A stretch of DNA of 64,000 bases from Escherichia phage PNJ-9, in the sequence record PQ100635.1; one strand, written 5' to 3'. Shown here piece by piece: positions 9,724-27,079 of this stretch; the first letter of the stretch is position 1, and each line of letters starts with the position of its first letter. A model generated the notes under the pieces. The model saw only the letters and a list, made by a program, of their open reading frames with translations, had not been told where the DNA came from and did no database searches. The translations under genes were made by a program, and so were the position numbers.

Positions 9724-10086
9724 ATGAAAGCATATCAAATTCTTGAAGGTGAACATAAAGGCACTATTTATTTTGAAGACGGTACTCAAGCCCGGATTAT
9801 TGTCTCTAAGACTTTTAAAGAAGACGCTATTGTAGATCCAGAAATTTTCTACGGTTTGAATGCTCGTGAAATTGAAATTGAACATCAACCTAAAGTTAAA
9901 ATTGAAGGTGGTCAGCACCTGAACGTTAACGTTCTGCGTCGTGAAACTCTGGAAGATGCAGTTAAGCATCCGGAAAAATATCCGCAGCTGACCATCCGTG
10001 TATCCGGATATGCAGTTCGCTTTAACTCTCTGACTCCGGAACAGCAGCGCGACGTTATCGCTCGTACCTTTACTGAGAGTCTATAA
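9724..10086 (+). CDS. hypothetical protein
   Basis: ORF track; GAGG upstream. Confidence 0.6.
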
Positions 10087-10310
10087 TGGCTAAATTGATT
10101 ATAGAAGGGTCTGAAGATGTTTTAAAATGTTTTGCCGCCTGGTTTAGTTGCTCAGGCGAGCAATCATTCATTGAAGCATTTAGAATGGGTGATATTACTG
10201 GAAACTATCCGGCAACTGATATCACTGTACGTGGATATGGTATTAATGAGCCTATCCAATTGGTCGAATATGACCTTGCCACCGATGAGGAAATTCCTTA
10301 TGTCGATTGA
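10086..10310 (+). CDS. hypothetical protein
   Basis: TAATG overlap. Confidence 0.55.
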   Translation: MAKLIIEGSEDVLKCFAAWFSCSGEQSFIEAFRMGDITGNYPATDITVRGYGINEPIQLVEYDLATDEEIPYVD

Positions 10311-10545
10311 AGACATCAAAGGCTACAAGCCACATACCGATGATAAAATCAGTAAAGTGAACGCTATTAAAGACGCAGAAGTTCGTTTAGGACTTATTCT
10401 GGACGCCCTGGCAGAAGAAGCATTATCAGCAAATACTCCTGAAGCTCTGACGGCTTTGTCCCAATTGAACTGTGCTAAAGAACGCCTAAAGGAAGCTAGT
10501 ATGTGGGCTTGTCGTGCGGTATTTCGACCAGAGGAAAAATACTAA
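10300..10545 (+). CDS. hypothetical protein
   Basis: Internal ATG of ORF 10132-10545 overlapping upstream stop. Confidence 0.5.
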
Positions 10546-10844
10546 TGGCTCAAATCCTATCAGGCTTTGGAACTCATTATGAAGCATCTCGACGCATAAC
10601 TGAAAGCAATCCTTTTGGCCTTGTTCCGAAGCACAAGAAAATTCAAAGCCTTGATGACTTTGAGAATCGCCTATGGGCCCTCTTTAATGAGTACAAGGCA
10701 TATCTGAAAGAAGACGCTGACGATTGTCTTGAAGAAGATGAGATTGCGTATTACGAACAACGCCTTGAACAGCTCAAGAACTTCCACCAGGTTCGTGACG
10801 AAGTATCTAAAGCAGTTAAAAAGTTAATTCCTTTCAAAGAGTAG
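10545..10844 (+). CDS. hypothetical protein
   Basis: TAATG overlap; ORF track 10503-10844. Confidence 0.5.
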
Positions 10845-10894
10845 TTTACTTCTCCTCTAGTTGTGTTACTATAGACCTGTCAACTAGAGGAGAA
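10844..10894 (+). promoter_or_regulatory. early-promoter-like cassette; 14-bp inverted repeat includes regB SD
   Basis: GTTTAC, 17 bp, TACTAT; IR TTCTCCTCTAGTTG/CAACTAGAGGAGAA. Confidence 0.5.
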
Positions 10895-14436: not shown

Positions 14437-14463
14437 GCCCCTTCCTTATGGTTGGGGCTTTTT
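14437..14463 (+). terminator. intrinsic terminator-like hairpin after rI
   Basis: GCCCC ... GGGGC stem then TTTTT. Confidence 0.5.
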
Positions 14464-14474
14464 GGCATCTATCA

Positions 14475-14526
14475 GTTTACTTCTCCTCAGGTTGTGTTAT
14501 AGTAGTCCTTACTTACTAGAGGAGAA
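14475..14526 (+). promoter_or_regulatory. early-promoter-like cassette with inverted repeat
   Basis: GTTTAC, 17 bp, TATAGT; IR TCTCCTC/GAGGAGA. Confidence 0.45.
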
Positions 14527-14530
14527 CGTT

Positions 14531-14710
14531 ATGTCACGTAAAGAAAAAATTTCTAAGTTAATGTTTTTGATTGAAGAGTACGCTAATGCGGTATCTGATT
14601 GGGAAAATGCTCATGGTTGCGAAGATGGAGACATCGACATTAACAGAGCTATGAAAAAGATGGCCGAAGCCCACTCCGAATTGCAAATGTATGTTAACGA
14701 GATTATGTGA
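14531..14710 (+). CDS. hypothetical protein
   Basis: ATG at 14531 after GAGGAG inside promoter cassette. Confidence 0.5.
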   Translation: MSRKEKISKLMFLIEEYANAVSDWENAHGCEDGDIDINRAMKKMAEAHSELQMYVNEIM

Positions 14711-14717
14711 GGATATT

Positions 14718-14927
14718 ATGCTTTACGATTATACTGGAAAATCTGAAGACGGTGTACTTGAACTTTTACCTGAAAGCGCTGAAGATGACGATATGACGAC
14801 GGTGATGTTTTGTAAAAATGGTCCTGGGGATAAGGGATGGATTTATCTTCGTCAAGAAAATGACCTAATTGTTTTGGACCCTAAACAAGTTGAAGAACTT
14901 TATCAACATTTAAAACACAATCGGTAG
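14718..14927 (+). CDS. hypothetical protein
   Basis: ATG after GAGGA; ORF track 14691-14927. Confidence 0.5.
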   Translation: MLYDYTGKSEDGVLELLPESAEDDDMTTVMFCKNGPGDKGWIYLRQENDLIVLDPKQVEELYQHLKHNR

Positions 14928-14961
14928 TTTACATCTTGGTAGGACTATGTTATAGTAGTCC
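14927..14961 (+). promoter_or_regulatory. early-promoter-like cassette with inverted repeat
   Basis: GTTTAC, 18 bp, TATAGT; IR TAGGACTA/TAGTCCTA. Confidence 0.45.
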
Positions 14962-14984
14962 TATCAAAACAAACGGAGAACAAA

Positions 14985-15095
14985 ATGAAACTTTTGCTTA
15001 TCGCTTATGTTGTAGTACAATACAATTATCCGATGTTTACTTATAACATGGTAAACGGCATAGTGAATCTTATTGAAACGAGTATGGTAAAATGA
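14985..15095 (+). CDS. small hydrophobic peptide (36 aa), not on ORF track
   Basis: ATG preceded by GGAG (7 nt), downstream of promoter cassette; ATGA-coupled to next small ORF. Confidence 0.35.
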   Translation: MKLLLIAYVVVQYNYPMFTYNMVNGIVNLIETSMVK

Positions 15096-15271
15096 CCCGT
15101 GAACAAGCTAATAAATTGATGGACCTTATCCATGACTTACGTGAAGCTGATTCAGATTTAAATGATGTAGCTTATCATGCAGTAAATGACTGTGGAGACT
15201 TTTATGAAAAACAAGTTGATTCTCGTCAGAATGATTTGGTGAATTTTGTTGAAACTTTAATTGGTGAATAA
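15092..15271 (+). CDS. small acidic protein (59 aa), not on ORF track
   Basis: Fills gap between promoter and 15273 ORF; stop 1 nt before next ATG. Confidence 0.4.
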   Translation: MTREQANKLMDLIHDLREADSDLNDVAYHAVNDCGDFYEKQVDSRQNDLVNFVETLIGE

Positions 15272-15272
15272 T

Positions 15273-15803
15273 ATGAAAACTGTAATTGAAACAACCGAAC
15301 TGTTCGGTGATTTGACTATCGAAAAACGTGGTAATGTATACGTTCTGACTCAGGAAGATGATGGTATTACTATTTGTCCTATGGAACTAGACGAGATTTT
15401 GAAACTCAATCCGCCTGGTCATGCATCGGCAATTAATATTGGTGGAGACCTTCAGGCTCGTTTTTATCATGGGCTTTATAACGGTGCTAATATCGAAACT
15501 GAAGACAAATGCCTTTCTATCGATAACTGGAAAACATTCGTTGCTAAGGTGAAAGAATTCTTGGAATCCGAACCACCTGAAAAGGCTAAACTTAAATGGG
15601 GTATCAGTCGTGGTGCTTACATTATTAATCCAATAGCTCCAAACTATACCACGACTTTGGCAGTCATGAATTCTTATGAAGATGGTGATGTCGTAACTAT
15701 TCGCCAAAATGATGATTTACGTTCACATGTTACTACATTTACCAAAGACGAAGCTGTAGCTCTTAAAGCTTATCTTGATTCTATTATCCCGACTTTGAAA
15801 TAA
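15273..15803 (+). CDS. hypothetical protein
   Basis: ORF track 15261-15803; ATG at 15273. Confidence 0.6.
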   Translation: MKTVIETTELFGDLTIEKRGNVYVLTQEDDGITICPMELDEILKLNPPGHASAINIGGDLQARFYHGLYNGANIETEDKCLSIDNWKTFVAKVKEFLESEPPEKAKLKWGISRGAYIINPIAPNYTTTLAVMNSYEDGDVVTIRQNDDLRSHVTTFTKDEAVALKAYLDSIIPTLK

Positions 15804-18810: not shown

Positions 18811-19098
18811 ATGGATTTTATGCAAAAAATTAAAGCCGCAGTAGAACTCTATGCTCATCGTATGGTTAGTTCTACGATGCAATATAGCGAGGAGGTTCGC
18901 CAGGACTCTTCCTTGAAAGGAAAAACTAAAGCCTTAATTACCTTAGACCGTCTACAAAAGAATGCCCTAGAGTTGTTCCAGTACGACAAGGATGCATATA
19001 AGAAAGAACAGGAAGAGAAACTTAAATCCGAAAAATTACAGAAAATTCCGAAGTCGGTTTGGTTCAGTGGAAAAAATACCGAAAAAAGTTTCTTTTAG
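18811..19098 (+). CDS. hypothetical protein
   Basis: ORF track. Confidence 0.55.
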   Translation: MDFMQKIKAAVELYAHRMVSSTMQYSEEVRQDSSLKGKTKALITLDRLQKNALELFQYDKDAYKKEQEEKLKSEKLQKIPKSVWFSGKNTEKSFF

Positions 19099-19100
19099 TT

Positions 19101-19136
19101 GTTTACAAGGTCTATGGTTGTGTTATTATAGACCTA
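19101..19136 (+). promoter_or_regulatory. early-promoter-like cassette with inverted repeat
   Basis: GTTTAC, 17 bp, TATTAT; IR AGGTCTAT/ATAGACCT. Confidence 0.45.
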
Positions 19137-19156
19137 TCAACTACTGGAGGTAAAAC

Positions 19157-19684
19157 ATGAACGCTAAAGATATTTTCAACCTGGTAAATTATAACGACGG
19201 TAAATTTAAATCTGAAGCACAAAGCAAGTTCTTTAATGACGTTGCTTATGGTAACGAGATTACCGTGGACGGAGGTCAGATTTTCAAATCTCGCTGGAAT
19301 TGGATTGCTATCATCGATTCAGTTGGAATTGTGGAAGTCTACAAAAACACTAACAAAAAACGTACATTATTCTGGTCTCGTGAAACTAACGAGCAGTACA
19401 AAAAGGATAAAGCATCTCGTTTATCTAAAGTAACCCAGGAAGATATCGAGTTTATCAAGAAAGATATCGAGATGTACGAAAATTTAATCGCTGAAGACCA
19501 GGCAGTACTCGATAAGTTTGATGAAATTAAAGCTTCTCGTGAAATCCCTGACTTCATGAAAGAAACAGTAAATGAACGATACGCTCTCACTTCAGAACGT
19601 ATTGCAAACTATACAAAACAGAAAGCAGAACGTATTAGTACTCTTCGGAAATTTGAAGAACGTTTAAAGACGGTTCACGCATAA
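19157..19684 (+). CDS. hypothetical protein
   Basis: GGAGG upstream. Confidence 0.6.
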   Translation: MNAKDIFNLVNYNDGKFKSEAQSKFFNDVAYGNEITVDGGQIFKSRWNWIAIIDSVGIVEVYKNTNKKRTLFWSRETNEQYKKDKASRLSKVTQEDIEFIKKDIEMYENLIAEDQAVLDKFDEIKASREIPDFMKETVNERYALTSERIANYTKQKAERISTLRKFEERLKTVHA

Positions 19685-19711
19685 ACGCTTTACCCAAGGA
19701 CGGGTTATAAT
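19684..19711 (+). promoter_or_regulatory. middle-promoter-like element (MotA box + -10)
   Basis: AACGCTTTA, 13 bp, TATAAT upstream of 19747 ORF. Confidence 0.45.
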
Positions 19712-19746
19712 GGTTTTGAGTTCCAATTCAATCTGAGGAAATAGTT

Positions 19747-20742
19747 ATGAGCATTACATCTGATGCGGTAAAACATGAAATTAACGGTTTATGTGCTTCA
19801 CAGATTAAAGTGTGGTTTAAAGACCATAATGATCGCAGAGCACTTAATTATGAGCAAATTGCTATCCAAGTTCATCAATTACTGACTAGTAAATTTGATT
19901 TTCATATGCCGTCTGAAATCTATACTAATCTACCGCGAGCGCTTATTAAAGCGTGTAAAGGTTACGGAAAATCAATGGCCGATGGAATCTTCAGCGCGCT
20001 GAATAAACTTAACGTTCTGTCGATGATTAACTCTAACAACATCCTGCGTAATCTAGGACGTACTGATTTGTTCGGTCGGGAACAGTGTAAAATGCCTTTG
20101 AAATGGATTGTTGCTCATCTTAACGAGAACCAAACACGTTTTATGGCCGTATCAGCACGCTTACAAATGGGCCTAGATCGTCAGATGAACTTTAAAACTC
20201 ATCCACGTTATTCAGGTTCAACAGACTTTTATAAATGTGAGCTTCAAAAGGTTGCAGGTAAAACTGTCTTAGTAGTTCGTGTAACGTTTGAAGGACGACG
20301 ACAAGGATATTTTGACCTAATCGGCTCTGGTCTTAAACATTGCGGATTTATTGACGAAGTTGATATCAAGCGAGACAGCATTGGATACCGTATTGGATAT
20401 GTTTGTACTCTTAAAGAAGAGATTTCAGGACCAGTACCAGGACTAAAAGACGTTAGATATAAAGACGAGCTCGTTGAAGAAATAAAAGAAGTTGAATATG
20501 ATATCAACCAAGAAGATGCTCTTAAAGACCTTATTGATGAACTGAACCAAGACGTTATTCCGGTTCAGAAATTTGAATCAAAACATGCTGAGCAAATCAA
20601 ATACTTTGAAGCTTTGATTAACGAACTTAATGTAACTATTCAACAGACTGACGATGAAATCTCGCGATTAGCAGGCTTAAACGGTAAAAATAAAACAGAA
20701 CGAGCTAATCTTATTCAGGTAGTAAAACTTCTTAAGGAATGA
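19747..20742 (+). CDS. hypothetical protein with C-terminal coiled coil
   Basis: 331 aa; predicted coiled-coil tail; MotA-box middle promoter upstream. Confidence 0.6.
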   Translation: MSITSDAVKHEINGLCASQIKVWFKDHNDRRALNYEQIAIQVHQLLTSKFDFHMPSEIYTNLPRALIKACKGYGKSMADGIFSALNKLNVLSMINSNNILRNLGRTDLFGREQCKMPLKWIVAHLNENQTRFMAVSARLQMGLDRQMNFKTHPRYSGSTDFYKCELQKVAGKTVLVVRVTFEGRRQGYFDLIGSGLKHCGFIDEVDIKRDSIGYRIGYVCTLKEEISGPVPGLKDVRYKDELVEEIKEVEYDINQEDALKDLIDELNQDVIPVQKFESKHAEQIKYFEALINELNVTIQQTDDEISRLAGLNGKNKTERANLIQVVKLLKE

Positions 20743-20771
20743 TGTACAACCAAGGATGGTTGGAGTATAAT
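20742..20771 (+). promoter_or_regulatory. early-promoter-like cassette (duplicate of 21762)
   Basis: TGTACAACCAAGGATGGTTGGAGTATAAT. Confidence 0.45.
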
Positions 20772-20797
20772 AAATTTTTCAACATGAGGAATATAAA

Positions 20798-21757
20798 ATG
20801 GCTTCTATTACACGTAGAGAACTTATCAAAGAATTTACCTCGAACGCATATACCCCAGGACCTAATCCTATCCGTATGCCTGTAAAGACTCCTGAAGAGA
20901 TTGAGGAAATCTGTTCATATTATGGGATTAATTCTCGTAAGTTTACTCAATTTGAATGCGTTACTAACACACCCGTTAAAGAGTTCATTAAAAATGGTGA
21001 GTTCAGCCGTTTATTGGCCAAACAGAAACTTCGTAATTTTTGTATCGGCGGCAACGGACAATATTTTGCTAAACAGTTCAGAAATAACCTTAACAATCTG
21101 ATGGCCATTGCTTCTCGTATTCGTCCTCAAGCAATTAACATGAAACATTTGAAATATACTTACGATAAGTTAGAAATCATGGTTATCAGTGAGAACGAGT
21201 TCACTCTTACGTATAAACCTAAGAATGATAACGTTGCTCGTGTATTCCACCAAGCGTTGGAAGTTTTAGGTGATAATATCCACCAGATTAAAGCAATTTA
21301 TTCTCGTGAGCTTAATATTATCAACCCTATCAAGAATAAGGGCCATATCGCTATCCAGGCTCGTGTATCTGTTGGTAAAAAGGTTCCTGCGCCATGGTGG
21401 CACAAAGACTCTGAATACTATCAAAATCTTAAAAAGGAAAATGCAACGTTCGAAGCATCGCTTACTGGGACCCCAATTGAACAGGCCGAAGTCCTAAGTG
21501 CTTATTCTACTTCGGGTAAATCAATGTTTAAAGGTTTGCCAAATGTGTGCAAACTGTCTGCAGTAAAACTAAATGTTTCTAATGACCTTCTTCCGGCCGA
21601 AGATTACCATTACAATCAAATCAAGGCCACTATGGACCAACTGTCTGTTGAACTTGACAAAGCACAAGCTAAGCTTCGTGATGCTCAAAGTGTTGTAACG
21701 AATCTCCAGTTGCAGTATTCTAAACTTTTTAACGCAATGAATGCATTAAAATCATAA
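20798..21757 (+). CDS. hypothetical protein with C-terminal coiled coil
   Basis: 319 aa; near-identical promoter cassette to next gene. Confidence 0.6.
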   Translation: MASITRRELIKEFTSNAYTPGPNPIRMPVKTPEEIEEICSYYGINSRKFTQFECVTNTPVKEFIKNGEFSRLLAKQKLRNFCIGGNGQYFAKQFRNNLNNLMAIASRIRPQAINMKHLKYTYDKLEIMVISENEFTLTYKPKNDNVARVFHQALEVLGDNIHQIKAIYSRELNIINPIKNKGHIAIQARVSVGKKVPAPWWHKDSEYYQNLKKENATFEASLTGTPIEQAEVLSAYSTSGKSMFKGLPNVCKLSAVKLNVSNDLLPAEDYHYNQIKATMDQLSVELDKAQAKLRDAQSVVTNLQLQYSKLFNAMNALKS

Positions 21758-21761
21758 ATCA

Positions 21762-21791
21762 GTTTACAACCAAGGATGGTTGGAGTATAAT
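21762..21791 (+). promoter_or_regulatory. early-promoter-like cassette (duplicate of 20742)
   Basis: GTTTACAACCAAGGATGGTTGGAGTATAAT. Confidence 0.5.
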
Positions 21792-21819
21792 GAATCTATC
21801 TTAACGAGAGGAAAATATT

Positions 21820-22770
21820 ATGACACGTTCACATTACATTGATTATTTTGCAGGTCTTATCGCTAATGTTCATGCCCAACGTGCTTCTGGTTCATTAGGA
21901 TTTGATGTTCCACACCGAGATGTAGTAAGTGGTATTCTTCGCGATTTTGGTACATATACCGGCCAAGAAAATCATATCTGTAAAGATACTCAAAATGCGT
22001 ATTCTCATTCATTAGGGACACTGCTTCAATGGTTCAAACGTTCTCGTTTATTATCTTCTACTGTAGCTCGCGATAACATTAAAAACTTTATGAAGCCGAG
22101 CTTTATTAAATCTGTGACATCTAAAACCGATTTGGTTGAATTCACTATTGTTAATGATGTTAAAAAGACTCATTTGGCTGATTGGTTATCTACCATTCCT
22201 GAAACTAAATTTGCTGATAAATTTGCTTGTGAATTCAATAACCAAGTGAATATGCTTTTTAAACATTCTCGTAAATTATTCACAGGTGGCGATGATCGTA
22301 CAAATACAGTTCATGTTAAAGATTGGGTTACTGCAGTATTCAAACCAACCGGTAATGGTAACGCATCATTATCAATTGATATCCAGGTTCCTTATTACTA
22401 CTCACGTAATCTCGGTACCATGAAAGCCGAAGAAATTAATAAGCACAACAAAACCATTCGTTCGCTGTCTTATAAACTTCGCATGATGTTAAGAATCATG
22501 GACGTGGTAGAAATGTATGATGAAACCGAAGATAACGGTTCGATGTTATTCAGTTCTCGTATTCAAATTAAGCTGAAGAATCCTAACGAGTATAAGCCTA
22601 AGCCTATTAAAGAACCTAAAGCAGAAAAGGTTGATATCATGGCTGAAGAACGTGAGTACCTCAAATCTCGTCTGAAAGAAGTCGAAGCCCAGATTGCAGA
22701 ACAAACTAAATCGTTAAAAGCTCTGAATGCGAAAGCGGACGGTTTACGAAATGCCATTGAGGTTTTATAA
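21820..22770 (+). CDS. hypothetical protein with C-terminal coiled coil
   Basis: 316 aa; coiled-coil tail. Confidence 0.6.
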   Translation: MTRSHYIDYFAGLIANVHAQRASGSLGFDVPHRDVVSGILRDFGTYTGQENHICKDTQNAYSHSLGTLLQWFKRSRLLSSTVARDNIKNFMKPSFIKSVTSKTDLVEFTIVNDVKKTHLADWLSTIPETKFADKFACEFNNQVNMLFKHSRKLFTGGDDRTNTVHVKDWVTAVFKPTGNGNASLSIDIQVPYYYSRNLGTMKAEEINKHNKTIRSLSYKLRMMLRIMDVVEMYDETEDNGSMLFSSRIQIKLKNPNEYKPKPIKEPKAEKVDIMAEEREYLKSRLKEVEAQIAEQTKSLKALNAKADGLRNAIEVL

Positions 22771-23075
22771 TGAAACTACGTCTTTTAGAGGATATTGATA
22801 TGAGCACTAATCACGGCTTGGTTAAGTTTATTGACGATAGTTCAAAGATTGAATTTGTTCAGCGAGATAAAATCCACGGTGAAGAAGAGTTCGTTCCTCC
22901 AGCATGGAACGAAATCATGAAAATGGTTGAACGACGTGAAAATGCTGCCAAATCGGCAGCAAAACATCCATGTCCGGAATGTGGAACTATCCAAGTCCAA
23001 CTGGTTAACTGGACCACTGATAACTTGAAATTGAAATGCCGTAAATGCTTCCACAAATTTGAGAGAACATTATAA
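22770..23075 (+). CDS. zinc-ribbon protein
   Basis: CPECG...CRKC four-Cys motif; TAATG overlap. Confidence 0.55.
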   Translation: MKLRLLEDIDMSTNHGLVKFIDDSSKIEFVQRDKIHGEEEFVPPAWNEIMKMVERRENAAKSAAKHPCPECGTIQVQLVNWTTDNLKLKCRKCFHKFERTL

Positions 23076-23488
23076 TGAGATATAGCCTTCGTTGTTTTAT
23101 CGCAGCTTTAGTTTTTGCTATTATTCCATTCATTTGGAACAGCCAGAATACTTACATGGAAACTAAAGTAATTCCTGTGGAGGTAGTGGAATTAATCTCA
23201 GGCCAATCTACAGGAAAATATTCTAAATTGGAATTTATTGCAGTTTATAAAGATGAACAAGGTCGAGTTTTTGACAGGCATGTATCACCGTCGTTTTATA
23301 CGCTTCTGAATAAAGGTGATACGATAGCTATAGAAATTCGTGAGATGGATATCAAACAAACTACTAAAGATAACTTGATTTGGTTCTTTGGTACAGTGTT
23401 GTTGGTTTCTATCTGTATCACAGGTTTTATTACATGTATTGTATTTGGCATTGCATATTTAATCGATGAAAGGAAAAATAATGTTTAA
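23075..23488 (+). CDS. membrane protein
   Basis: N- and C-terminal TM helices. Confidence 0.55.
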   Translation: MRYSLRCFIAALVFAIIPFIWNSQNTYMETKVIPVEVVELISGQSTGKYSKLEFIAVYKDEQGRVFDRHVSPSFYTLLNKGDTIAIEIREMDIKQTTKDNLIWFFGTVLLVSICITGFITCIVFGIAYLIDERKNNV

Positions 23489-23744
23489 AGTGTACGGGTA
23501 CGACTCTACTATTCATAAATGCATTTATTGCGATAATGCGAAACGATTGCTGACTGTTAAGAAACAGCCATTCGAATTCATTAATGTTATGCCAGAAAAA
23601 GGTGTTTTTGATGATGAGAAAATTGCTGAGCTTCTGGTTAAGCTTGGACGTGAATCACAAGTCGGATTGACTATGCCTCAAGTGTTTGCTCCTGATGGAA
23701 CTTCGATCGGTGGCTTTGACCAACTACGAGAATATTTTAAATGA
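23481..23744 (+). CDS. nrdC: glutaredoxin/thioredoxin NrdC
   Basis: MFKVYGYDSTIHKCIYCDNAKRLL... near-identical to T4 NrdC; CxxC active site. Confidence 0.93.
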   Translation: MFKVYGYDSTIHKCIYCDNAKRLLTVKKQPFEFINVMPEKGVFDDEKIAELLVKLGRESQVGLTMPQVFAPDGTSIGGFDQLREYFK

Positions 23745-25038: not shown

Positions 25039-25512
25039 ATGTTATTATCTGGCAAATTATACAAAGAAGAAAAACAAAAATTTTATGATGCACAGAATGG
25101 TAAGTGTCCTATTTGCCACCGTGAATTAGACCCTGATGTTCAAGGTAACCATCTTGACCACGACCACGAATTAAACGGGCCAAAAGCAGGTAGAGTTCGT
25201 GGGTTACTCTGTAATCTGTGCAACGCAGCAGAAGGCCAAATGAAGCATAAGTTCAACCGTTCCGGTCTTAAAGGACGTGATGTCGACTACCTCGAATGGC
25301 TTGAAGCTCTTCTTGCTTATTTGAAACAAGATTATTCTGATAATAATATCCATCCTAATTTTGTTCCAGACAAAACTAAAGAGTTCTCAAGACTAGGTAA
25401 AGAGGAAATGATGGCTGAGATGCTTCAAAGAGGATTTGAATATAATGAATCTGATACCAAAACACAATTAATAGCTTCATTCAAAAAGCAGCTTAGAAAG
25501 AGTTTAAAATGA
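25039..25512 (+). CDS. 49: endonuclease VII (Holliday junction resolvase)
   Basis: MLLSGKLYKEEKQKFYDAQNGKCPIC...HLDHDHELNG matches T4 gp49; 157 aa. Confidence 0.95.
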   Translation: MLLSGKLYKEEKQKFYDAQNGKCPICHRELDPDVQGNHLDHDHELNGPKAGRVRGLLCNLCNAAEGQMKHKFNRSGLKGRDVDYLEWLEALLAYLKQDYSDNNIHPNFVPDKTKEFSRLGKEEMMAEMLQRGFEYNESDTKTQLIASFKKQLRKSLK

Positions 25513-26046
25513 AAATTGAAAAAGAAATTGAAGGATTAATTCATAAAACTAATAAAGATCTTTTGAACGAGAATGCTAATAAAGATTCTCGTGTTTTTCC
25601 AACTCAACGGGACCTTATGGCTGGTATTGTGTCTAAGCACATTGCCAAAAATACGGTCCCGTCTTTTATTATGAAAGCACATGAAAGCGGAATTATCCAT
25701 TTCCATGATATTGATTATTCTCCTGCTCTTCCATTTACTAATTGCTGTTTAGTCGATTTAAAGGGGATGCTTGAGAATGGATTTAAATTAGGCAATGCTC
25801 AAATTGAAACGCCTAAATCGATTGGTGTTGCTACTGCAATTATGGCACAAATTACTGCGCAGGTTGCTTCCCATCAATACGGTGGAACTACATTTGCGAA
25901 TGTAGATAAAGTCCTTTCTCCTTATGTTAAACGCACCTACGCAAAACATATTGAAGATGCAGAAAAATGGCAAATCTCTGATGCGTTGAATTATGCCCAA
26001 TCTAAAACAGAAAAAGATGTCTATGACGCGTTCCAGGCGTATGAGT
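25509..26046 (+). CDS. nrdD: anaerobic ribonucleotide reductase NrdD, exon 1
   Basis: Class III RNR N-terminal region; frame interrupted at 26046 by group I intron. Confidence 0.85.
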
Positions 26047-27079
26047 TAATTTAATTCAGGCTCATGTAAAACCGGTCTAAACGGGGAACCTCTCTAGTAG
26101 ACAATCCCGTGCTAAATGTTCTTTTGAACTAAATGCCTAACGACTAACCGTGATGAATGTAGCGGTGTAGAATAGAAGCTAATGCTATTCGAAACGGCCG
26201 GCATCGAAAGATGAAGATATAGTCTAATCTGCATGGCGACATGCAGCAGTCATCTTGTATAAATAAGATTATCTTATGAATACGAGGTGAAACAATGAAA
26301 TGGATAAAAAGACGTTGTACTAAAATAAAAGATAAAGACGCATTTACATACTTAGTTAAGTTTTCTAATGGTGACATTTATATCGGTTATAAAAAATTTA
26401 GAACAATTAAAAACAAGCCCACAAACTGGAAAACTTACACAACGTCATCTAAGTATATAAATGAACGCTTAAAAACTGATACACCTACTAAATGGATAAT
26501 TTTAAAAACATTTGATAGTTATAAAGATGCATTAAAACATGAAGAAGAGGTCATACGTAAATATTTTTATAGCAAAAAATGTTTAAATAAATCCATAGGC
26601 GGTAAAAAGTTTTATAAGCATCCGGATACTGAAGAACATATTCAAAAATTAAGAGATGCTCATAAGGGTAAAGTGTTATCCGAATCTCATAAAAACAATA
26701 TAAAATCTTCTGTAGCTGAATATTATGCTAAAAACGGAAGATCTAAGGAACATGTGCAAAATAATATCAATAGTCGAAAAAGTAAAAAACAAGTATCGAT
26801 AAAGCTTAAAAATAAAACTTTTAGAAGTTTTAAAAAAGCAGCGGAATATTTAAATTGCACTGAAAGTGAAGTCGAAACTCATCCTCTTGTTTTGAGTATT
26901 AAGACTACTATTCATAAAGTTCCTGAATATGTGGTTGTTGACGGTATTAAGTATACGTCTTATATAGAAGCAGCTAAAGCGCTAAATTTTCATCCTAGCA
27001 CTATAAAAGAACGTTGCATATCTATGGACTATCCAAATTTTGTTGTTTCATATAAACGGGCATGAATTTGCGACTCATG
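26047..27079 (+). mobile_element. group I self-splicing intron in nrdD (T4 sunY/nrdD-type), 1033 nt
   Basis: P1: exon UAUGAGU pairs with GCUCAUG with U.G at splice site; conserved core CTAAACGGGGAACCTCTCTAGTAGACAATCCCGTGCTAAAT; P10 CUGAAU pairs with AUUCAG; omega G at 27079. Confidence 0.85.
26295..27065 (+). CDS. intron-encoded GIY-YIG homing endonuclease (I-TevII-like)
   Basis: GIY-YIG-like FTYLVKFSNGDIYIGY; lysine-rich, AT-rich; located 3' of intron core. Confidence 0.8.
   Translation: MKWIKRRCTKIKDKDAFTYLVKFSNGDIYIGYKKFRTIKNKPTNWKTYTTSSKYINERLKTDTPTKWIILKTFDSYKDALKHEEEVIRKYFYSKKCLNKSIGGKKFYKHPDTEEHIQKLRDAHKGKVLSESHKNNIKSSVAEYYAKNGRSKEHVQNNINSRKSKKQVSIKLKNKTFRSFKKAAEYLNCTESEVETHPLVLSIKTTIHKVPEYVVVDGIKYTSYIEAAKALNFHPSTIKERCISMDYPNFVVSYKRA

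Follow-up and report, generated by a model that had tools for sequence, protein, structure and literature searches.

The DNA described here is a 64,000-nucleotide stretch of Escherichia phage PNJ-9 (PQ100635.1), referred to below as the window. Between positions 19,747 and 22,770 it carries three consecutive open reading frames (ORFs), named A, B and C, all on the + strand. The ORF list and homology place ORF A, of 331 residues, at 19747..20742, ORF B, of 319 residues, at 20798..21757 and ORF C, of 316 residues, at 21820..22770. Each of them is preceded by a short cassette on the same strand that resembles the promoter-early stem-loop (PeSL) cassettes known from T4-type phages (Arbiol et al. 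2010, PMC2839356; Comeau et al. 2014, PMC4122927). The cassette before B (20743..20771) directly abuts the stop codon of ORF A (20740-20742), and the cassette before C occupies 21763..21791; both were found by promoter and hairpin scans and as a repeat. The cassette before A (19689..19711), found by reading the sequence and by the hairpin scan, is a compact or 'half' version. All three ORFs reside in the nrdC-mobD early hyperplastic region. The region is 100% identical to its counterpart in Escherichia phage PNJ-6 and about 97% identical to that of many relatives classed as Mosigvirus, the RB69 group of T4-like phages.

A first-pass annotation of the sequence had described three consecutive, similarly sized proteins of about 320 residues, each with a predicted coiled-coil tail, and a nearly identical segment in the leaders of the second and the third. 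These observations are accurate. Beyond them, a relative of the cassette stands before the first ORF as well; its hairpin architecture is the same, its stem is different and its spacing is 11 nucleotides. The annotation ascribed the arrangement to local duplication followed by divergence and suggested receptor binding, anti-defense or another host interaction as the function.

Family assignment

Each of the three proteins has a counterpart in T4. ORF A is of the NrdC.6 type (PF26899 / phrog_2257) and is 29% identical to T4 NrdC.6 (expectation value, E, 8e-19). ORF B is of the NrdC.5 type (25% identity to T4 NrdC.5, E 1e-10), and ORF C is of the NrdC.3 type (58% identity to T4 NrdC.3, E 2e-123). 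The Pfam family DUF7235 (PF23882) covers residues 15-318 of ORF B with E 9.3e-122 and 406.7 bits against a cutoff of 30, and the protein is 96% identical to RB69 NrdC.5 over 247 residues. ORF A matches phrog_2257 with E 3e-127, and PF26899 is carried by all of its homolog clusters (108 of 108). ORF C matches phrog_1435 with E 5e-105. The databases used therefore split the three proteins: they fall into PHROGs 2257, 2351 and 1435, all function-unassigned, and Pfam has PF26899 for A, PF23882 for B and no family for C.

ORF B in its present form occurs in only 132 phage records, and a single-sequence indexed search with ORF A returned only four close homologs. The number of paralogs in the interval is four in T4, three in the present phage and in JS98-type phages, and one in Klebsiella phages.

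Probable common ancestry of the three proteins

The mutual identity of A, B and C is roughly 12-18%. The first-pass annotation regarded a lack of pairwise similarity as evidence against duplication, and BLASTP indeed finds none; similarity emerges only from profiles, from structure and from a bridging sequence. Cross-matches to the T4 proteins gave the first hints in this direction: C matches NrdC.4 (E 4e-5), T4 NrdC.3 matches T4 NrdC.4 (E 0.008) and A matches NrdC.3 (E 0.025). T4 NrdC.3 and NrdC.4 fall into one cluster by way of intermediate sequences.

Family profiles were built from 24 syntenic loci anchored on NrdC, in which all ORFs were clustered and the clusters then enriched with database homologs. 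One of the resulting families, c87, is a Klebsiella-phage branch. Unrelated families of about 300 residues from the same loci provided 45 control comparisons in HHalign. With shallow profiles the first HHalign run showed no link for A, and the link appeared only after enrichment. The enriched A profile matches that of C with E 2.8e-5 and 74% probability over 207 collinear columns, and the combined C and c87 profile with E 1e-6 and 91% probability over 136 columns, the match spanning columns 7-157. C and c87 match each other over 275 columns (E 8e-9, 96% probability). The link of B to C is the weakest (E 4e-4, 35% probability, roughly 130 columns) and lies in the central region, as does the match of B to c87 (E 2e-4, 44% probability). 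B matches the combined C and c87 profile with E 2e-7 and 94% probability. The best of the 45 controls reached E 0.024 and 2% probability.

The profile signal is carried by recognizable motifs common to the families. The B and C types begin with M(K)TRxxYI. LSxxNxxxILRN of A aligns with SRLLSxxVAxDxIKNF of C, and LNENQxRxxAxxARL of A corresponds to FRNNLNNLMAIASRI in B and EFNNQVNMLFKHSRKL in C. A β/α segment and a terminal (K/R)LxxAxxxLK helix are shared as well.

A search of a viral structure library with the predicted model of ORF A (Foldseek) returned its own family and then full-length proteins of about 300-335 residues with E from 7e-8 to 2e-3. These are uncharacterized proteins of T4-like phages of Enterobacter, Klebsiella, Yersinia, Serratia, Acinetobacter and Aeromonas. 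The match from Klebsiella phage Mineola has 326 residues and is almost certainly CPT_Mineola_080, the only protein of that length in the examined region of the phage. CPT_Mineola_080 occupies the NrdC.3 position and belongs to c87 (family model E 5e-106). A bridging sequence, gp94 of Yersinia phage fHe-Yen9-01, is recognized both by the A profile (3e-6) and by the combined C and c87 profile (1e-6).

Gp94 has 292 residues and is encoded at 14459-15337 on the minus strand of fHe-Yen9-01. Another protein of this phage, gp111 (313 residues, 21382-22323, minus strand), is a structural match of the ORF A model, matches the B profile weakly and adjoins a homolog of NrdC.11. From the placement of gp94 and gp111 it follows that members of the superfamily sit in different slots of the region in Tegunavirus.

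Several points weigh against a common origin. Pairwise BLASTP among A, B and C gave nothing (E 0.18-7.2), and the HHalign probabilities are moderate, 35-94%. The strongest link of B, with E 2e-7, is confined to the 47 columns of the C-terminal helix, a part whose coiled-coil composition can raise scores artificially. The structural support for paralogy comes from the predicted model of ORF A, and its Foldseek matches have template modeling scores (TM-scores) of 0.2-0.4, low because the model is multi-domain and flexible. The model of ORF B is mostly unusable, as described below. Together with the assignment to three separate PHROGs and separate Pfam families, and given that coiled coils can yield spurious profile matches, this is what would be seen if A, B and C were unrelated ORFans of matching size, with convergent C-terminal coiled coils and promoters that resemble each other only through the early-promoter consensus. 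Such an origin is very unlikely. The matches of A to C, of A to C with c87 and of B to C are collinear and extend outside the tails, with E values 100 to 10,000 times better than those of the 45 controls. In addition, the ORF A model finds a protein of the superfamily of c87 and C, and one sequence is matched by both profiles. The promoter part of the argument is treated below.

Common ancestry is thus likely, with A, B and C being ancient, strongly diverged paralogs, and this much of the proposed duplication and divergence stands. The superfamily would comprise the T4 NrdC.3, NrdC.4, NrdC.5 and NrdC.6 types and the Klebsiella-phage branch, and its unification appears to be new. An exhaustive HMMER search with the profile of B, C and c87 found only 11 representatives among 1.84 billion proteins; the distant matches P0146 and P0147 are metagenome-only. 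As far as such sequence searches reach, the superfamily is narrow, fast-evolving and specific to T4-like phages.

Domain organization

In a crude heptad scan, the segment with the best amphipathic heptad pattern falls within the last 40-50 residues of every one of the proteins (about 267-307 in ORF C) and exceeds the 95% shuffle threshold in all three. Weak Pfam matches in the tails are to coiled-coil families only. In the AlphaFold2 model of ORF A, with a mean predicted local distance difference test (pLDDT) score of 71.5, an N-terminal helical domain (residues 1-145) is followed by a small β/α domain (160-222), then by a linker that is disordered and rich in indels (225-277) and finally by two helices at the C terminus (281-330), namely 281-308 and 314-330. 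In the ORF B model a single 54-residue helix, 265-318, is the sole confident part; the pLDDT is 39.6 and the rest cannot be used, because the alignment for B stayed shallow. Profile alignment, and for A also the model, suggests a shared plan in which an N-terminal helical domain precedes a small β/α domain, and a variable linker leads on to an amphipathic helix at the C terminus. This helix would serve oligomerization or docking, and it probably mediates oligomerization.

The linker of ORF A (residues ~225-277; 20419-20577 in the window) is an indel hot spot among close relatives. In the present phage it contains an additional acidic stretch, LKDVRYKDELVEEIK, which relatives with 87-91% identity lack, and the NrdC.6 types of T4 and JS98 are without the entire linker. 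T4 NrdC.6 as annotated (275 residues; T4 locus 10067-10894, minus strand) has a C terminus unlike that of all relatives. The conserved NrdC.6 tail (...RLSGLSSKAKSEREKLIKIVDLLKS) is present in T4 in another frame and reaches the start of nrdC.5. There is therefore a frameshift in T4, either real or a sequencing error, and the annotation masks the C-terminal helix.

The putative promoter cassettes

A 26-mer occurs exactly twice in the window, at 20746 and 21766; 100 shuffles give an expectation of none, even with three mismatches allowed. The unbroken identity extends over 27 of 27 nucleotides (20745-20771 and 21765-21791) and, when extended further, over 33 of 36, making this the longest direct repeat in the region. 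The cassette before B consists of a -35 hexamer TGTACA (20743-20748), a 17-nucleotide spacer and a -10 hexamer TATAAT (20766-20771), with 10 of 12 consensus matches. In the cassette before C the corresponding elements are TTTACA (21763-21768), a spacer of the same length and TATAAT (21786-21791), with 11 of 12 matches; the equivalent site of phage NBG1 is annotated as 'promoter'. The compact cassette before A has TTTACC, a hairpin at 19692-19705 and TATAAT (19706-19711).

The first-pass annotation had allowed that the likeness of the two leaders might reflect nothing beyond the general early-promoter consensus. This is not so. Elsewhere in the window, T4-type early-promoter-like sites have just the two hexamers in common with it, and both the spacer and the hairpin are absent from them. 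The identity of the segments before B and C is therefore not mere consensus, which also removes the promoter part of the argument for unrelated ORFs. The shared segment is best read as a PeSL-type cassette, a putative sigma-70 early promoter that carries a hairpin within its spacer.

The compact cassette has a spacer of only 11 nucleotides, short of the sigma-70 spacing of about 17 nucleotides, and is therefore probably not a self-sufficient sigma-70 promoter; the promoter scan did not report it, and its spacing weighs against the overall reading given below. A consensus scan found an early-promoter-like site with 10 of 12 matches upstream of NrdC.8, at 19102..19129 on the + strand (TTTACA, 16 nucleotides, TATTAT, with TG before the -10). 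Its position upstream of NrdC.8 is kept in all relatives. Judging from its sequence, this site is likely to be the promoter of a transcript covering NrdC.8 and ORF A.

The AAGGAY hairpin

The hairpin before B, CAACC-AAGGAT-GGTTG, lies at 20747-20762 and is repeated with the same sequence before C at 21767-21782. Before A it takes the form ACCC-AAGGAC-GGGT and is followed directly by TATAAT. The architecture N4-AAGGAY-N4' is found only three times in the 64-kb window, always on the + strand and with one copy in front of every ORF of the array. The equivalent positions in T4, JS98-type and sibling genomes have the same loop closed by other complementary stems: TACC/GGTA, CCAC/GTGG, AGCC/GGCT and CATCC/GGATG. 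The compact form after nrdC.8 also exists in T4 and JS98-type phages, where its stem is different and again complementary.

Among nine distinct cassettes, 95.6% of the cells are paired, compared to 67% in shuffles. Four of the five pairs have changes on both sides, none of 500 shuffles reaches the covariation score, and controls in which the alignment was slid collapse. Covarying stems and an asymmetric, invariant loop point to a fold of a single strand, RNA or DNA, and not to an operator for a dimeric protein. The hairpin is present in the minimum-free-energy folds, although whole leaders do not exceed shuffles in stability (z = -0.9 to +1.3). An Rfam scan gave no match.

A Rho-independent terminator at the cassettes, for which a GC-rich stem of five or more pairs with a U-run behind it would be needed, was considered and rejected: the terminator scan found no + strand site in the three intergenic regions, and the stems are followed by GAGTATAAT or TATAAT.

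Two kinds of role are candidates for the hairpin: it may attenuate read-through transcripts or mark them for processing, or it may form a single-stranded DNA structure that favors template switching or recombination. If it were selected mainly as an RNA element, as an attenuator, a stabilizer of the 3' end of the upstream cistron or a processing site, its role as a recombination linker would be secondary. Such a reading touches the cassette alone and leaves the conclusions about the proteins intact. Its attraction is that GGA, which forms the core of the RegB/S1 target, is exposed in the loop, that GGAG follows the stem in most full cassettes, and that the hairpin is directly 3' of the upstream stop codon. 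RegB recognizes single-stranded GGA with an A-rich 3' context (PMC1702504), and the stem-loops of RB49 PeSLs lowered read-through in a reporter (PMC2839356). The single-stranded fold itself is what an RNA element would require, but hairpins in single-stranded DNA would give identical covariation. Moreover, a G-rich stem lies 3' of the loop GGA instead of the A-rich RegB consensus, the leader folds have neither extra stability nor an Rfam counterpart, and the stems are short and weak. A predominantly RNA role is less likely than not.

Mosaic junctions and spread of the cassettes

Nucleotide homology to T4-type genomes runs from 19059 to 19715, through NrdC.8, and ends four bases past the -10 hexamer of the first cassette (19706-11). 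Across A and B there is none, and homology returns at 21763, the first base of the -35 hexamer of the third cassette. In comparison with JS98-type genomes, the three cassettes and their short flanks are the sole homologous islands across A, B and C. The gene content of the segment differs between relatives. The nearly base-precise match of the mosaic junctions with the cassettes and the covariation-defined AAGGAY hairpin are, along with the unified superfamily, the new elements of this analysis.

In T4-type and JS98-type genomes the NrdC.5 genes lack a preceding cassette. It follows that the copy before B is a duplicate, specific to this lineage, of the copy before C and is independent of the ancient duplication of the genes. 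The perfect identity of the 27 nucleotides, as opposed to genes that have diverged almost beyond recognition, leads to the same conclusion: the promoter segment is not a relic of the duplication that produced the ORFs. In this respect the first-pass annotation, which attributed both to one event, has to be corrected. The cassette is separately maintained and portable, and in sibling genomes it also precedes unrelated genes.

Two sibling Mosigvirus contigs (L106, positions 1331 and 1888; L109, position 1682) have the core TTTACAACCAAGGATGGTTGGAGTATAAT, or its CATCC/GGATG variant, before each gene of a tandem pair of paralogs of about 165 residues. These paralogs share the C-terminal motif GWV(T/S)DQWVEDG...GDF.VV and are absent from the window. 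Other phage contigs, one of them 363 kb long, contain a TTGACA -35 hexamer, a complementary stem, a C-AAGGAT-G loop and then TATAAT (L049 at 8297, L085 at 1136 and L147 at 2058). The AAGGAT loop may thus be a wider feature of PeSLs. In the scan of viral contigs for the cassette core, 13 of the 123 matches listed passed the hairpin and -35 filter. Chance matches dominate the scan, and these cases are therefore examples and not a census.

Two points temper this reading of the cassettes. First, the hairpins are weak, with 4-6 pairs, RNA free energies of -4.9 to -8.2 kcal/mol and no U-tract, so that the terminator role of the GC-rich RB49 PeSL stems probably does not apply. Second, the homology breakpoints at the cassettes fit cassette-mediated recombination and do not prove it.

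Function of the array

The available functional data are published ones. T4 nrdC.5, described as an 'uncharacterized early gene', restores infection by a deletion phage of cells carrying the Sir2-domain defense Dsr1 (Srikant, Guegler & Laub 2022, PMC9391042), and T4 mutants without nrdC.1-6 are viable (PMC9825161). Gp49.2, encoded nearby, inhibits OLD (PMC13096335), and NrdC.1 inhibits Septu (bioRxiv 10.1101/2025.11.20.689424). Since the T4 homolog of ORF B counteracts Dsr1, an anti-defense role is the best supported of the functions suggested in the first-pass annotation. Nothing supports receptor binding, as these are early-region genes without similarity to structural proteins. Sequence-level searches of PDB, NCBIfam and PADLOC with the array proteins gave nothing meaningful and no enzyme match, and A, B and C are without enzyme-like features. 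The best inference from homology and context is that they are non-enzymatic early binders that would neutralize host defense or other host factors. Two facts temper this. ORF B is only 25% identical to the tested T4 NrdC.5, and the transfer of function is therefore weak. The experimental precedent, furthermore, belongs to the NrdC.5 type, and the NrdC.6 and NrdC.3 types have none.

The proteins could instead be host-takeover factors unrelated to immunity, for example proteins that, soon after infection, modulate the transcription, nucleoid or metabolism of the host. This is rather unlikely. The sole family member tested acts on a defense system, and several neighbors are proven anti-defense proteins. 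The array is dispensable on laboratory hosts, and its copy number and sequence vary greatly between close relatives, as is typical of arms-race genes.

GenBank labels suggest yet another function, since most of the array carries 'thioredoxin' product names in PNJ-6 (OQ076693.1) and its relatives. A role of the three proteins as thioredoxins or in nucleotide reduction can be set aside almost entirely. Neither Pfam nor NCBIfam gives a thioredoxin or glutaredoxin match at E <= 1 or 0.1, the predicted fold of ORF A, helical with a small β/α domain, is unlike thioredoxin, and the real NrdC is a separate ORF of 92 residues downstream. The label is evidently a mis-annotation that was propagated from the locus name nrdC.x.

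Taken together, the locus is probably a tandem array of diverged members of an ancient superfamily, dispensable accessory genes of anti-defense type that stand behind PeSL-type cassettes acting as exchange points. Host RNA polymerase would start at the full cassettes before B and C straight after infection, and ORF A would probably be read from the NrdC.8 promoter. The proteins would then bind and neutralize host factors, anti-phage defense systems being their most probable targets, with different paralogs covering different targets. The cassettes would serve as short islands of homology at which related phages swap, gain or lose gene modules.

A more far-reaching proposal can be made by analogy. 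Integron attC sites conserve the fold of their stem and not its sequence. The AAGGAY hairpin might likewise be a structure-specific signal for recombination or template switching that is read as folded single-stranded DNA, and the array, like other tandem paralog arrays in these phages, might be a true gene-cassette system, housed in a phage that is strictly lytic. The proteins would in that case be a modular anti-defense scaffold, with a common C-terminal coiled coil and N-terminal domains that have diverged to fit individual immune systems. As a joint claim this is improbable and is offered as speculation.

The proposed unification of NrdC.3, NrdC.4, NrdC.5 and NrdC.6 into one superfamily that contains a proven anti-Dsr1 factor makes A, C and T4 NrdC.3, NrdC.4 and NrdC.6 candidate counter-defense proteins. 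It also suggests a common mode of action, which is open to comparative study. The covarying hairpin at mosaic junctions provides a defined element with which to approach two questions about PeSLs, namely whether there is a dedicated mechanism or general recombination, and whether the element acts as RNA or as DNA.

Neighboring genes

Homologs of NrdC.8, NrdC.11 and NrdC.10 are upstream of the array, and homologs of NrdC.2, the NrdC thioredoxin, Pin, endonuclease VII and NrdD are downstream. The NrdC.8 homolog (19157..19684, + strand; 175 residues, 83% identical to T4 NrdC.8) forms the conserved left flank of the variable segment. On the right, homology identifies an NrdC.2-like gene (22770-23075, + strand), a gene for an NrdC.7-like membrane protein of 137 residues (23075-23488, + strand; 41% identical to T4 NrdC.7) and the NrdC thioredoxin (23466-23744, + strand). 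The NrdC.7-like gene is thus downstream of NrdC.2 in the window. Its T4 copy immediately follows the compact cassette, in the interval from nrdC.8 to nrdC.6, and the gene is a relocated module.

A promoter-like site, TTTACG-17-TATAAT with 10 of 12 matches, is located at the extreme end of ORF C (22743-22771). It cannot serve NrdC.2 in the normal way because its -10 hexamer overlaps the stop codon of C and the start codon of NrdC.2. Further downstream, the NrdD frame (25509-26054 in the window) ends after 181 residues, and the PNJ-6 annotation has a homing endonuclease just 3' of it. The nrdD gene appears to be interrupted by a mobile element, as it is in T4 (I-TevII intron).

Comparison with known systems

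The region is ordinary for a T-even-type phage, in that function-unassigned early ORFs are punctuated by PeSL cassettes, and both kinds of element have been described before. The closest functional precedent is T4 NrdC.5 (PMC9391042). ORF B shares with it DUF7235, the position in the array, the C-terminal helix motif and the status of an early, dispensable gene; it differs in three quarters of its residues, so an anti-Dsr1 role of ORF B is suggested by sequence only. ORFs C and A resemble T4 NrdC.3 and NrdC.6, respectively, to the extent given above, C is also related to NrdC.4, and the synteny between NrdC.8 and NrdC.2 is retained. The T4 interval differs in containing four paralogs together with NrdC.7, whereas the window has three paralogs, and NrdC.7 is found beyond NrdC.2.

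The likeness to integron attC cassettes and to the 'morons' of lambdoid phages is one of analogy: short conserved elements flank accessory genes that are expressed individually. In contrast to integrons, no integrase is known or was found, each of the present cassettes brings a promoter with it, and exchange presumably relies on general homologous recombination.

The most instructive comparison is with the PeSLs themselves. For these, modular shuffling has been proposed, with evidence from mini-circles in RB49/phi1, where promoter and terminator activity was found as well (PMC2839356, PMC4122927). Like PeSLs, the cassettes of the window are intergenic and combine an early-promoter sequence of sigma-70 type (T-even TTTACW-N17-TAYWAT) with a stem-loop; a Shine-Dalgarno sequence and then ATG come next. 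They are repeated before successive function-unassigned ORFs in the hyperplastic region, at the edges of replaced or inserted modules. Their stem-loop is flanked by the -35 and -10 hexamers, which is the commonest arrangement in RB49/phi1, and the compact cassette before A corresponds to the 'half' PeSL copies described in the same region of PST/T4 (PMC4122927). The differences are in the stem-loop. The T-even (PST/T4) PeSLs have AGNA-loop-TCNT stems that lie immediately upstream of the promoter, and in RB49 the stems are GC-rich and terminator-like. The present cassettes, on the other hand, have 4-5 strict Watson-Crick pairs, too weak for an obvious terminator, placed inside the spacer, and they combine an invariant C-AAGGAY-G loop with covarying stems.

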